A DNA stretch of 12,690 bases from Myxococcota bacterium (lineage in GTDB: Bacteria > Myxococcota > JACRCW01). The position numbers and the translations under genes were made by a program. The notes under the pieces are model-generated. The model searched no databases. It saw only the letters and a program-made list of their open reading frames with translations, and was not told where the DNA came from. The stretch covers positions 1 to 12,690 of the forward strand of contig JBFMGU010000293.1 of assembly GCA_040752415.1 (NCBI GenBank), given 5' to 3'. Shown here piece after piece: positions 142 through 5,872 of the stretch (its first letter is position 1; each line of letters begins with the position of its first letter).

Positions 142-165
142 GGCCGGGCTGGGAGAGGTGCGTTG

Positions 166-1293
166 ATGAAGGTGGTGGCAGCGCTCAGCGGTGGAGTGGA
201 CAGCAGCGTTGCCGCTGGGCTGTTGCTGGAGGCCGGGCACGAGGTCCTCGGCATGACGTTGAAGCTGGCCCCGGACCGCGACGGCGCCCCGGCCAGCCAG
301 CGGTGCTGCAGTGTGGATGACGCCATGGACGCGCGTGCCGTCTGCGCCCGCCTGGGCATCCCGTTCTATGTGCTGAACGCGCAGGACCTCTTTGCGGAAA
401 AGGTCATCGACACCTTCGCCAGCGCCTACCGCGCCGGTCTCACGCCGGTCCCGTGTCTGGCCTGCAACGTGGACCTGAAGTTCGGGCACCTGTTGCAGCG
501 CGCCCGCGCCATGGACGCCCGCCTGGCCACCGGGCATTACGCGCGCATTGTCCGCGGCGCCCATGGGCCAGAGCTCCACACCCCGGTCGACGCGGAGAAG
601 GACCAGACATATTTTCTTTATGGAATCGGTCTAAACGCCCTGGAATACGTGGATTTTCCCGTTGGCGGAATGTCCAAGCGGGAGGTCCGGGAGCACGCTT
701 CCCGGCTCGGGTTGCCCGTTTTCGACAAGCCGGATAGCCAGGAAATCTGCTTCGTCCCGGACGACGGACACGCGCGCTTCGTGGAGCGCTGGGATGGCCT
801 GGGGGAGCGACCGGGCCGGTTCGTGGGCACGGAAGGCCAGGTCCTGGGCCAGCACCGGGGGGTGCACACGCTGACCGTGGGACAGCGCAAGGGGCTGGGA
901 ATCGCTGCAGGGTCGCGGCTTTACGTGCTCTCGGTGGATGCCAGCTCGGGCGACGCGGTGGTCGGCGGCCCGGAGCACCTGGAGGCCACCGGCCTCGTGG
1001 CGGACGACGCGGTCTGGCTCATGGCCCCCGCCGAGCGACAGGAGTTGGGGAACTGGGACGTCCAGGTCCGAATCCGGGCGCGCCACACGCCGGCCGCGGC
1101 GCGGGTGGAGGTCCTGGGCGATGGGACCGGCTTCCGGGTGCGATTCCGCGAGCCGCAGCGGTCCATTGCGCCAGGCCAAAGCGCGGTGGTGTACCGGGGC
1201 ACACGGTGCCTGGGCGGGGGCATCATCCGCGGGCGGCTGGAGTCCGGGACCAGCGTTGCTCCACAGGTCGAAACGCATCAAACAGTCACTTGA
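166..1293 (+). CDS. mnmA: tRNA 2-thiouridine(34) synthase MnmA
   Basis: PP-loop SGGVDS, plus PCLACN, ATGHY, KDQTYFL, DSQEICF, GQRKGLG and APGQ motifs. GGGAGAGG SD-like sequence at 151-158. Start is ATG 166 or TTG 163. Confidence 0.96.
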   Translation: MKVVAALSGGVDSSVAAGLLLEAGHEVLGMTLKLAPDRDGAPASQRCCSVDDAMDARAVCARLGIPFYVLNAQDLFAEKVIDTFASAYRAGLTPVPCLACNVDLKFGHLLQRARAMDARLATGHYARIVRGAHGPELHTPVDAEKDQTYFLYGIGLNALEYVDFPVGGMSKREVREHASRLGLPVFDKPDSQEICFVPDDGHARFVERWDGLGERPGRFVGTEGQVLGQHRGVHTLTVGQRKGLGIAAGSRLYVLSVDASSGDAVVGGPEHLEATGLVADDAVWLMAPAERQELGNWDVQVRIRARHTPAAARVEVLGDGTGFRVRFREPQRSIAPGQSAVVYRGTRCLGGGIIRGRLESGTSVAPQVETHQTVT

Positions 1294-1952: not shown

Positions 1953-1980
1953 AGTTTACATAACGTATATTATCGGACGT
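1953..1980 (-). other. dif: dif site (XerC/XerD chromosome dimer resolution site)
   Basis: Minus strand reads ACGTCCGATAA-TATACG-TTATGTAAACT, an 11-6-11 layout with inner ATAA/TTAT. The XerD arm matches E. coli TTATGTTAAAT at 9/11. It is intergenic and AT-rich, and KOPS motifs converge on it. Confidence 0.9.
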
Positions 1981-1983
1981 TGA

Positions 1984-2541
1984 ATGGAACGGAAATACCC
2001 GAGGTTGTTGGGCTTTTTTGGGTCGGCCTGCGTCGGCCTGGTGATTCTGGGACCGGGCTGCAAGCGGCACGCGGAAGCGCTGGATGCCGGCTCCAAGGCT
2101 GCGGTCGTGGATGCCGCGGCGCCGGCCGCGCCACCGGACGCTGGACCACGGTGGCGGGCCTGGGTGGTCTGGGACGGAGGCTCGGCGCCGCTGGCCGATC
2201 TGGCGGAAGTTCCCCAGGTGCCGCCGGTCACCGTCCGCGCGTGGCTTCCTGGCGTGCGCGCCGGTTCCATCCGCGCACGCGCCGCGATGGAATCCTCCGA
2301 GTCCTCCCTGGCCCTGGATTCCGCCGCCGCCGACGTGGATGGCGGCACGCTGGCCACGGTCACCGTCCTGGAATCCCGGGTCTCTGGGCCGGCGGTCGTC
2401 CGCTGGGAGCGTTCCGTGGGCGGTGGCCAGCCCGAGTTGGTGGCGGCCGCGCCCTTGACCCTCCAGCTCCCGCCAGCCCCGGATGCCGGCCCCACCAAGG
2501 CCAAAGTGACCGGAAAGACTCGGAAAAAGCGTCGTCGCTAG
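1984..2541 (+). CDS. Hypothetical secreted protein or lipoprotein with DAG/DGG low-complexity motifs and a basic C-tail
   Basis: Basic N-terminus, hydrophobic stretch and possible lipobox Cys (VGLVILGPGC). Contains LDAG, PPDAG, VDGG, APDAG and ends KTRKKRRR. Stop overlaps the convergent gene's stop (CTAG). No clear SD. Confidence 0.6.
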   Translation: MERKYPRLLGFFGSACVGLVILGPGCKRHAEALDAGSKAAVVDAAAPAAPPDAGPRWRAWVVWDGGSAPLADLAEVPQVPPVTVRAWLPGVRAGSIRARAAMESSESSLALDSAAADVDGGTLATVTVLESRVSGPAVVRWERSVGGGQPELVAAAPLTLQLPPAPDAGPTKAKVTGKTRKKRRR

Positions 2542-3449
2542 GTCTGGGGCGTGGTTTCCGCGGCCGCGCGGATGGCGGCCAGGGTTGCTTTCAGCATCAT
2601 GGGCCCCCCCTCAGCGCGCTCCTGCCACGCCTCGCACGCAGGCAACGTCTCCGGGAGCCCACCTACCGCGGCCCGGATTCGGCCAACCAGGCTGTCGTGC
2701 ACCCAGGCGGCAAGCCGAGGCAGGCTCCAGACGTCTTCCATGGCGTATTCACAAAGCAATTCCAGGGCTTGGCGGTCCCGCTCCAGGGTCCACCTCTGCC
2801 ACAGCGGAATGGCGTCGGGGCCGCGGAGCGCCCGGACGTGTTCCGCCCGGGTCCAACCCATCTGGGCCTCCACCACCTTCAGCCCGCCGTGGACGCCCAG
2901 CTGTCGCACCACCGCTGCCACGTCCACGTGGAGCGTGGGCATTTGCAGCTGCGGCCAGGCCGCCTTCAACAACGGAAGGTCCAGTTGCGCCCCCGCAAAG
3001 GTCACCACCGCCGACGCGCTCTCCACCAGCTGCAACGCCGGGGTCGGGTCCTGGCCGCGAACCCAGCATGCCGCCCGGTCCCGGGTGCGAACGGAGAGCA
3101 CGGTCATGGCGTTGGGCGTCCGGCCTCCGTCGGTTTCCACGTCAATGAACACGGCGTGGTCCAGCAGGACCGGGATCATGCGCCAGCGTTGTCGGACCGG
3201 GAGCAGCGACCACAGCCCATGCACGTCCCGCGCGGCCAGGTGCACGTCAAACCGCCCCACGTGCTCCTGCACCTTCACGGCGCGCACGCCGCGGAACCCG
3301 GCATCCTCCAGCGCCCGCCCCAGCTGGTCCCGGGCCCACCCCCCCGCCAACCAGAGGCGTCGCTCCGTTCCAGGTCCAACTCCAGGCGCTCCCACCAGGG
3401 ACCATCCCAGGATTCCCGTGTGCCGACCTGCTGCTGAGCCAGGGTCCAT
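2538..3449 (-). CDS. RNase H-like domain 3'-5' exonuclease, YprB/COG3359-like (DEDD), with an N-terminal HhH-like motif
   Basis: PGVGPGTERRLW (HhH-like), FIDVETDG (Exo I), VTFAGAQLDLP (Exo II), HVD, GGLKVVE...G..R, DAIPLW and LLCEYAMEDV (Exo III). Exact start uncertain. Confidence 0.8.
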   Translation of the reverse strand: MDPGSAAGRHTGILGWSLVGAPGVGPGTERRLWLAGGWARDQLGRALEDAGFRGVRAVKVQEHVGRFDVHLAARDVHGLWSLLPVRQRWRMIPVLLDHAVFIDVETDGGRTPNAMTVLSVRTRDRAACWVRGQDPTPALQLVESASAVVTFAGAQLDLPLLKAAWPQLQMPTLHVDVAAVVRQLGVHGGLKVVEAQMGWTRAEHVRALRGPDAIPLWQRWTLERDRQALELLCEYAMEDVWSLPRLAAWVHDSLVGRIRAAVGGLPETLPACEAWQERAEGGPMMLKATLAAIRAAAETTPQT

Positions 3450-3461
3450 TGGAACTCAGTG

Positions 3462-3489
3462 AGTTGACATAATCCCGATTCTGTCAACT
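3462..3489. other. Symmetric dif-like site with two XerD-like arms (alternatively a transcription factor operator)
   Basis: AGTTGACATAA-TCCCGA-TTCTGTCAACT. The left arm matches the local dif XerD arm (AGTTTACATAA) at 10/11 and the right arm matches TTATGTAAACT at 9/11. Same 11-6-11 spacing. Confidence 0.6.
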
Positions 3490-3561
3490 CGGAGCAAGCG
3501 CGTCGGGAACCCAGCGACACCGCCACCCGGAGGGTCCGAGCAGAGGCGCTGTGGCTCTTAG

Positions 3562-3969
3562 CTACGCTCCGGCGTCACTCTTGTCGGTGTTGTTGGTCAC
3601 GGGCGTGGCGCCAGGGATCCCGTTGCCGCCGTCAGCGCTGCTGCTGGCATCGTGGGCGGCGCCGGCGTCCAGCGCCCCTCCGTCACGACGAGCGCCTTCC
3701 TCCAGGGCCGGCTCCAGGATGTCAAAGCCCAGGATGTAGGCGGCTGTGGTGCGCCAGACGTTGTCTTTCCAGGGCCCCGCGTCGGCTGCGCGGAAGCCCT
3801 GCTCGTAGCGCACCACCGCTTTCTGGGGCGACCCGGCGTCCCTCCCGGCCACGGCCTCGGGTGCCCACGCCGGAACGCCCTGCCCCGCCGCGGGCGGAAG
3901 CTGCCACGCCAGCGTCGTCAGGAGCGTTGCCAGGGCGGCCAGGGCCGGCCCTCGCCAGGAACGGAACAT
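3562..3969 (-). CDS. Hypothetical exported protein with DAG/DGG motifs
   Basis: Signal-peptide-like N-terminus (MFRSWRGPALAALATLLTTLAW). Contains RDAG, ADAG, RDGG, LDAG, ADGG, SDAG. Starts 14 bp after the mdh stop on the same strand. Confidence 0.6.
   Translation of the reverse strand: MFRSWRGPALAALATLLTTLAWQLPPAAGQGVPAWAPEAVAGRDAGSPQKAVVRYEQGFRAADAGPWKDNVWRTTAAYILGFDILEPALEEGARRDGGALDAGAAHDASSSADGGNGIPGATPVTNNTDKSDAGA
3878..3885 (-). other. KOPS motif GGGCAGGG oriented toward dif
   Basis: CCCTGCCC on the + strand. Confidence 0.45.
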
Positions 3970-3983
3970 GGGTCGGTGGCCTC

Positions 3984-5872
<1,889 letters not shown>

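Follow-up and report, generated by a model that had tools for sequence, protein, structure and literature searches.

Our analysis suggests that a 30-base palindrome lying beside dif in a draft Myxococcota genome is an accessory site of the dif region that would be read by XerD without XerC and that comes nearest to the XerD-binding sites (XDS) of Bacillus subtilis, a reading to which we give a probability of about 60%. The window, by which we mean the whole stretch of DNA analysed, is an entire contig (C216) of 12,690 bases from a draft genome of 11.0 Mb in 520 contigs with 69% G+C, and the palindrome is called here a DD site, for a double-XerD-arm site in which both arms are of the XerD type. 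A XerD-only terminus site was the first of two readings offered by the original prediction, which had been made from the letters of the window, and it is supported by arms that equal the XerD arms of dif and co-vary with them, by the clustering of such sites at dif in three families and by conservation in a sister genus.

Sequence and geometry of the site

The palindrome occupies positions 3461-3490 of the window (GAGTTGACATAATCCCGATTCTGTCAACTC), where an inverted-repeat search resolves two 14-nt arms that are 93% complementary with 2 nt between them, and its core (3462-3489) parses as 11-6-11 into AGTTGACATAA / TCCCGA / TTCTGTCAACT. The left arm (3462..3472, + strand) is a perfect XerD consensus, matching 9/9 positions of AGTTNNCATAA, and has the inner ATAA. 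The right arm (3479..3489), which reads AGTTGACAGAA on the - strand, scores 8/9, its outer 8 nt being perfect and one inner position degenerate (TTCT for TTAT). Compared with the XerD arm of the dif in the window (AGTTTACATAA), the left arm agrees at 10/11 positions and the right arm, once reverse-complemented, at 9/11, and on the XerC-arm positions the two arms score 5 and 4 of 9, so neither is XerC-like and the site is without the one-XerC-plus-one-XerD composition of a dimer-resolution dif. Its six-base centre (3473..3478) is also unlike the CGTATA of dif. Re-reading the sequence thus bore out the first description in full, that is, the near-perfect 30-bp palindrome, its 11-6-11 geometry, the two arm scores, the lack of a XerC-like arm, the differing spacers and the occurrence of ACATAA only twice on the + strand of the window, in dif (position 1958) and in the DD site (position 3467). 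The hexamer TTATGT has no occurrence on that strand.

The site is also singular within its genome. When the full pattern put forward by the original prediction, AGTTKACAKAA-N6-TTMTGTMAACT, was scanned across the whole draft it matched the DD site alone, and the half pattern AGTTKACAKAA returned only dif and both DD arms. No second copy of the 30-mer was present in the 11.0-Mb draft, even allowing 7 mismatches, and the 9/9 matches to AGTTNNCATAA were two in number, dif and the DD site, with 60 matches at 8/9 or better. A double-XerD-arm scan of the same genome gave 2 matches against 0 in the reversed genome; the other match (C294:4829) lies in a divergent promoter and was rejected as a tandem operator of unrelated type, ACATAC-N6-GTATGT. 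Around it (C294:4700-5000), the interval between the two divergent genes contains TTCACATAC-N6-GTATGTCAA palindromes, three in tandem, and looks like a repressor operator array.

dif in the window and across the phylum

In the window, dif lies at 1953..1980 (+ strand), 1.5 kb from the DD site, and consists of the XerD arm, the centre CGTATA and the XerC arm TTATCGGACGT, as read on the + strand. A search for AGTTNACATAA-N6-TTATCGGAC with up to 2 mismatches matched 330 of 401 Myxococcota genomes (a tally that takes in the unpublished G195), nearly always once per genome, with 2 matches in the reversed control. The matches in two large families are identical to the published dif of Myxococcus xanthus and Anaeromyxobacter dehalogenans as given in an excerpt of Carnoy and Roten (2009; PMC2731167), which identifies the conserved XerD arm as TTATGTNAACT and the XerC arm as ACGTCCGATAA. 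The left DD arm, AGTTGACATAA, is the exact dif XerD arm in many genomes of the phylum.

Several genomes carry more than one dif-like sequence. In the 2.5-Mb genome G041 (family f10), eight near-identical 28-nt dif-like copies are scattered over contig C1 from 361684 to 2497795, and these may represent a repeated mobile element carrying or targeting a Xer-type site. Sets of dif-like sites having both a XerC and a XerD arm were seen in G191 (three in 1 kb, C155:2586-3560), G301 (C435 and C475), G032 (four across 5 Mb, C5), G099 and G098 (5-6 matches), and these sites could be integrated Xer-exploiting elements or plasmid sites. At G034:C4:189843-189966 a pair of GTTCACATA-N8-TATGTGAAC palindromes, 96 bp apart, has a dif-like outline but looks more like an operator pair.

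Conservation in a sister genus

The family of the window is represented by two genomes, the source draft (G000) and G001, which belongs to another genus. In G001, dif reads AGTTAACATAA CGTTGA TTATCGGAC, and a DD site of sequence AGTTGACATAA CTCAGG TACTGTCAACT lies 1.57 kb from it, again just upstream of the RNase_H_2 gene. The left arm and the outer 8 nt of the right arm (read as AGTTGACAGTA) are identical to those of the window, all six centre bases are changed, and the inner end of the right arm is TACT where the window has TTCT. The two loci are syntenic, with DNA that is alignable in the coding parts alone (64-69% identity), and the genes between dif and the DD site keep their order across the genera with a protein identity of 49%. 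The palindrome, on whose conservation the original prediction had staked itself, is hence kept at the same place in the only same-family relative. A metagenome scan with the exonuclease protein found no relative, and a scan with the DD pattern gave 9 loci, all from lower-G+C organisms without a phylum-type dif nearby, which did not extend the family of the window.

Clustering of DD sites at dif

Whole genomes (n=401) were searched for AGTTNNCATAA-N6-TTATGNNAACT with up to 2 mismatches, a search in which many matches are dif itself. True DD sites numbered 23, in families f1, f2 and f4, all with the 11-6-11 spacing. Seventeen of them lie on the dif contig, at 0.04-4.9 kb from dif, and none of the 23 was located more than 5 kb from dif on a dif contig; for a random site, the chance of falling within 5 kb of dif is about 1 in 600 in genomes of 5-7 Mb. 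The remaining 6 belong to contigs other than that of dif or to a genome without a dif match. Among the genomes with these 6 sites, G005, G031, G091 and G086 also have a DD site beside dif, and the dif contig ends less than 3 kb from dif in G005, G031 and G091. The original prediction had named a genome-wide spread without terminus bias as evidence against itself; what was found is a single site in the genome of the window and clustering at dif in three families, together with a variant in family f18.

Twenty dif regions were retrieved, chosen mainly for their DD-search matches, and with the window and G001 they form a biased set of 22, of which 16 contain at least one DD site, a looser score adding G101, and 6 have none found near dif. 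There is one site per genome in the draft of the window and there are one or two in f4. The site is on the XerC-arm side of dif in the window, G001, G071, G066, G101, G015 and G096, on the XerD-arm side in G002, G091, G086, G076 and G005, and one stands on each side in G051 and G024. An outer-arm-only scan of the dif regions that have no DD site found none (control 0). DD sites were likewise not found in any of 67 f15 genomes or in 5 closed Myxococcus-type (g81) genomes, and from these absences, together with the 6 of 22 regions, they are therefore dispensable in much of the phylum.

The f18 variant keeps the outer 8 nt only (AGTTGACA-N12-TGTCAACT), both arms being without the inner TTAT; this outer-arm pattern matched 9 of 401 genomes versus 2 in the reversed control. 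Genomes of f18 have 2-3 such sites each, in intergenic gaps of diverse gene context (sucC; DnaJ-TPR/kinase); for the two on a contig with dif the distance is 3.5 kb (G132) and 19 kb (G119), and the remainder are on short, unplaceable contigs. When the same outer-arm pattern was scanned over wider genome contigs, at least 119 loci were returned and set aside as mostly chance palindromes, hairpins and a TTGACA triple repeat of Sphingomonadales, with two Myxococcota matches among the matches listed. The Sphingomonadales element, AAGTTGACA-AAG-TTGACA-CCG-TGTCAACTT with three TTGACA units, is recurrent (L033, L037, L040, L043, L045, L049, L071, L087, L095 and others), with several per genome in Novosphingobium, Porphyrobacter, Erythrobacter and relatives.

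Gene surroundings of the DD sites

The genes of the window run from mnmA (163..1293, + strand), a conserved neighbour of dif, through a CXXCH protein gene (1397-1888, +), dif, a hypothetical 185-aa gene that lies between dif and the exonuclease gene (1984..2541, +) and an RNase_H_2 (PF13482; E 3.3e-20) exonuclease-like gene (2538..3449, -) to the palindrome and a hypothetical 135-aa gene (3562..3969, -), the end of which is 71 nt from the DD site; beyond these come mdh, a hypothetical gene, icd, dnaJ and a Ser/Thr kinase gene. The 185-aa and 135-aa genes are open reading frames with no match in Pfam or NCBIfam, and NCBIfam gave no name to the exonuclease or to the hypothetical neighbours of the DD site. 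A hairpin or terminator reading of the palindrome was rejected, there being no T-run, an empty terminator scan at the site, an RNA fold z of -0.42 and non-palindromic centres in related sites. The arms contain TTGACA, and a promoter reading was also rejected, with no sigma-70-like -10 element at the proper spacing and no sigma-70-like promoter at 3300-3700.

In the relatives, DD sites have three gene contexts. The first, with the order NUDIX, DD site, RNase_H_2 exonuclease and dif, is shared by the f4 genomes G024, G091 and G086. In G024, 34 nt separate the DD site from the ATG of the exonuclease gene, whose stop codon overlaps dif. The RNase_H_2 gene is in this way bracketed exactly by DD and dif in L151 (1413-2340, from G024), L195 and L196, and the nuclease may be functionally linked to Xer/dif. 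In the second context the site separates a radical-SAM gene from its radical-SAM paralogue at 1-3 kb from dif (G015, G071, G066, G101, G051, G031, G024 and G076). At these f4 loci (L194 at 5152-5179, L198, L199, L206, L191, L193, L200 and L197) the site is wedged between the tandem paralogues, which are HxsC-like by NCBIfam but below the cut-off, and its arms directly adjoin the stop codon of the first gene and the ATG of the second, with no space for a ribosome-binding site. The third context is that of G002, in which a DD site 2.1 kb from dif fills the entire gap between mnmA and the gene for the CCA-adding enzyme (cca), its ends being overlapped by the stop codon before it and the ATG after it. 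Because the adjacent genes vary between lineages in this manner, the DD sites go with dif rather than with a gene.

The regular abutment of DD sites on the next start codon would also fit a regulatory role, in which a XerD roadblock, or an unrelated dimeric factor, controls the following gene, here the RNase_H_2 exonuclease, whose ATG is 11 nt from the end of the DD site. The sites of relatives abut or overlap the start codon of the following gene as well, and the order of DD site then exonuclease recurs in f1 and in three f4 genomes. The downstream genes are, however, mutually unrelated (exonuclease, radical SAM, CCA-adding enzyme), and 14 of 17 loci of exonuclease homologues are away from dif and without a DD site. 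In a tree of these 17 homologues the dif-linked genes of f1 belong to a different clade from those of f4, and the f1 branch is very long. The co-variation of the arms with the dif XerD arm, the lack of a sigma-70-like promoter in the interval noted above, the lack of a regulator gene adjoining the site (by Pfam/NCBIfam of the window genes) and the single genome copy also speak against an operator, which we consider quite unlikely. A motif preceding functionally linked genes, the pattern expected of an operator in the original prediction, was accordingly not what the genomes presented.

The conservation of the sites was most readily seen at the orthologous radical-SAM site of eight genomes, where the arms hold 1.66 and 1.62 bits/position compared with 0.71 for the centre and about 0.5 for the flanks; judged by these values, selection is acting on the DD arms across the eight genomes. 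This bears on a further reading, in which the palindrome is the scar or boundary of a Xer-mobilized module of the IMEX or pdif type and the DNA between it and dif is a former insert. Two Xer-type sites do enclose 1.5 kb in the window and precisely one gene in each of G024, G091 and G086, and Acinetobacter plasmids are known to carry cassettes bracketed by Xer sites, according to an excerpt of PMC11705084. Yet the bracketed genes are syntenic across genera at the protein identity given above, the G+C between dif and the DD site in the window is ordinary, and the arms facing inward differ in type, the XerC arm of dif facing the insert in the window and the XerD arm in G024. There are also DD sites that lie among housekeeping genes and lack a dif partner on that side, and a former module boundary is very unlikely given arms that are under selection.

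The protein that reads the arms

By their sequence the DD arms are XerD arms. Arm positions 5-6 are freely variable (GA, TA, AA, AC) in dif and DD sites alike, with a nearly invariant G at position 2. Two genomes, G096 (f4) and G002 (f2), have a dif XerD arm that begins ATTT instead of AGTT (ATTTTACATAA), and the four DD arms they contain are all ATTTTACATAA as well. Such co-variation, seen twice independently, implicates the protein that recognizes the XerD arm of dif, and it is likely that XerD binds the DD site. Above the NCBIfam cut-offs, the genome of the window encodes a single XerD (C506:4722-5588, 359.7 bits) and a single XerC (C21:30985-31851, 344.4 bits); it also encodes an SMC (1072 bits) and an FtsK with a gamma domain.

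The second reading of the original prediction, that the palindrome is the target of a different tyrosine recombinase, has some footing in a third Xer-like gene of the same genome (C420, 160 bits to the XerD model) and in further integrase-like matches. Close orthologues of C420 (>200 bits) were nonetheless found in G001 and G031 only, among 40 relatives, so this gene does not follow the DD sites, and the DD-bearing genomes G005, G015, G024 and G038 gave only XerC/XerD-level matches in the C420 search, making a dedicated extra recombinase unlikely. With a single XerD and a single XerC in the genome, and with arms that equal the dif XerD arm and change with it, recognition by another recombinase is disfavoured and appears highly improbable.

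Proposed role of the DD sites

Under the preferred reading, a XerD-only accessory site, two XerD monomers would read the DD site without XerC, and XerD held there would act on traffic converging on dif. The most likely action would be that Smc-ScpAB is unloaded or stopped before it crosses dif, as at the XDS of B. subtilis; alternatively, a local pool of XerD might be held at the site or FtsK might be halted. By this analogy we infer that DD sites just outside dif, ancestrally on both sides, fit an SMC-unloading role, and an SMC role for the DD site specifically is put forward tentatively. It is possible, if doubtful, that in several Myxococcota families dif sits in a capsule of a few kb bounded by XerD-only sites, ancestrally one per side, at which XerD homodimers would stop or unload Smc-ScpAB, and perhaps FtsK, on each replichore.

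The inner positions bear on whether the sites would only bind XerD or also recombine. We know of no natural XerD-only recombination, and a literature search on XerD homodimers, XerD-XerD sites and XerD-only sites found nothing relevant. The centres of the DD site and dif differ and one arm in the family of the window has lost its inner TTAT, so the palindrome is better explained as a binding site than as a recombination partner of dif, and in both genomes of this family the DD site is, as far as its sequence tells, probably binding-only. The inner ATAA/TTAT is, on the other hand, intact on both arms in most f4 and f2 sites, whereas the window and G001 keep one, and the many intact f4 and f2 sites could therefore be recombination-competent and not pure binding sites.

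Recombination at DD sites would require four XerD monomers to synapse sister copies and exchange strands, serving as back-up dimer resolution or as an inversion/deletion partner. The full 11-6-11 geometry, the conservation in most f4 and f2 sites of the inner motifs that flank the cleavage points, the encoded FtsK with its gamma domain and a centre that varies freely between genomes, as sister-sister exchange would allow, are all in keeping with such a reaction. So is a rearrangement seen in G076, in which dif and an adjacent gene of about 700 aa are inverted relative to the radical-SAM/DD/radical-SAM unit when compared with G051. At the level of the loci (L197 against L191), this is a small inversion that includes dif. 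Set against these points are the loss of the inner TTAT in one arm of the window (TTCT) and of G001 (TACT) and in both arms in f18, and a canonical XerC/XerD dif 1.5 kb away, and XerD-only recombination seems to us unlikely as the function of the site.

The removal of SMC by XerD is experimentally known from one organism, and conserved dif-hugging sites in a second phylum suggest that it is general. If dif does lie within a XerD-bounded capsule, a non-recombinase role of XerD at the terminus would be ancient and widespread and not a peculiarity of Bacillus, and the minimal architecture of one or two sites would be cleanly dissectable. The DD sites offer exact sequences for functional tests in a layout of one or two sites within 3 kb, which is far simpler than the multi-site terminus of Bacillus. 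They are also a caution for dif-prediction pipelines, which may pick the wrong one of two Xer-like terminus sites.

Comparison with known systems

The XDS of B. subtilis number about eight and are distributed across the terminus region; they were reportedly the subject of work by Karaboja and colleagues in Mol Cell in 2021. The DD sites differ from them in belonging to another phylum and in numbering one or two at 0.04-5 kb from dif, in contrast to several XDS across the terminus, and the f18 relatives, with 2-3 variant sites per genome, similarly differ from a host with several XDS. In excerpts of papers that describe the system, XerD at the dif-like XDS of the B. subtilis terminus unloads Smc-ScpAB before dif (PMC11840125, PMC10945525, PMC11894783); an excerpt of PMC12322038 also cites the work on XDS. 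The DD sites are alike in being dif-like, in the terminus region, separate from dif and predicted to be read by XerD outside dimer resolution, a likeness drawn from such citing descriptions, and their host, like B. subtilis, encodes both Smc and XerD. Literature returned for XerD, dif or the terminus of Myxococcus, as far as its excerpts go, held no description of extra XerD sites in Myxococcota. Our comparison, made with papers that cite the XDS work, suggests that the DD sites are an apparently undescribed variant of extra XerD-type terminus sites.

With the dif/XerCD system of Myxococcales, as it appears in the excerpt of Carnoy and Roten (2009; PMC2731167), the DD sites share the 11-6-11 layout, the same XerD arm, a low G+C and an intergenic position at the terminus, but they have no XerC arm and an unrelated centre, and occur mainly in f1, f2 and f4 in contrast to dif, which 330 of the 401 genomes possess. 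A single type of recombinase for both arms, which is predicted for the DD site, is also a feature of difH/XerH, difSL/XerS and the archaeal dif/XerA in the portions of PMC2731167 and PMC5357621 concerned. The organisms with those single-recombinase systems are, in these portions, without XerC/XerD and have one dif only, whereas the DD site coexists with a canonical XerC, XerD and dif. The pdif/xrs sites of Acinetobacter plasmids are, in the excerpt of PMC11705084, likewise extra and rather palindromic Xer-type sites that bracket one or a few genes; they are plasmid-borne, with XerC and XerD arms to which both proteins bind cooperatively (PMC11705084), unlike the DD sites, which are chromosomal, conserved in position and made up of XerD arms only.

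A functional analogy can further be proposed with the archaeal dif-associated boundary of an SMC domain (excerpt of PMC11840125) and with MatP/matS of Escherichia coli (excerpt of PMC10945525), since in each case SMC would be kept from crossing the dif region, although the proteins and sites of both differ from those of the DD system. For other bacteria, an excerpt of a 2026 Hi-C survey (PMC13342612) argues that arm juxtaposition has an end point which tracks dif.
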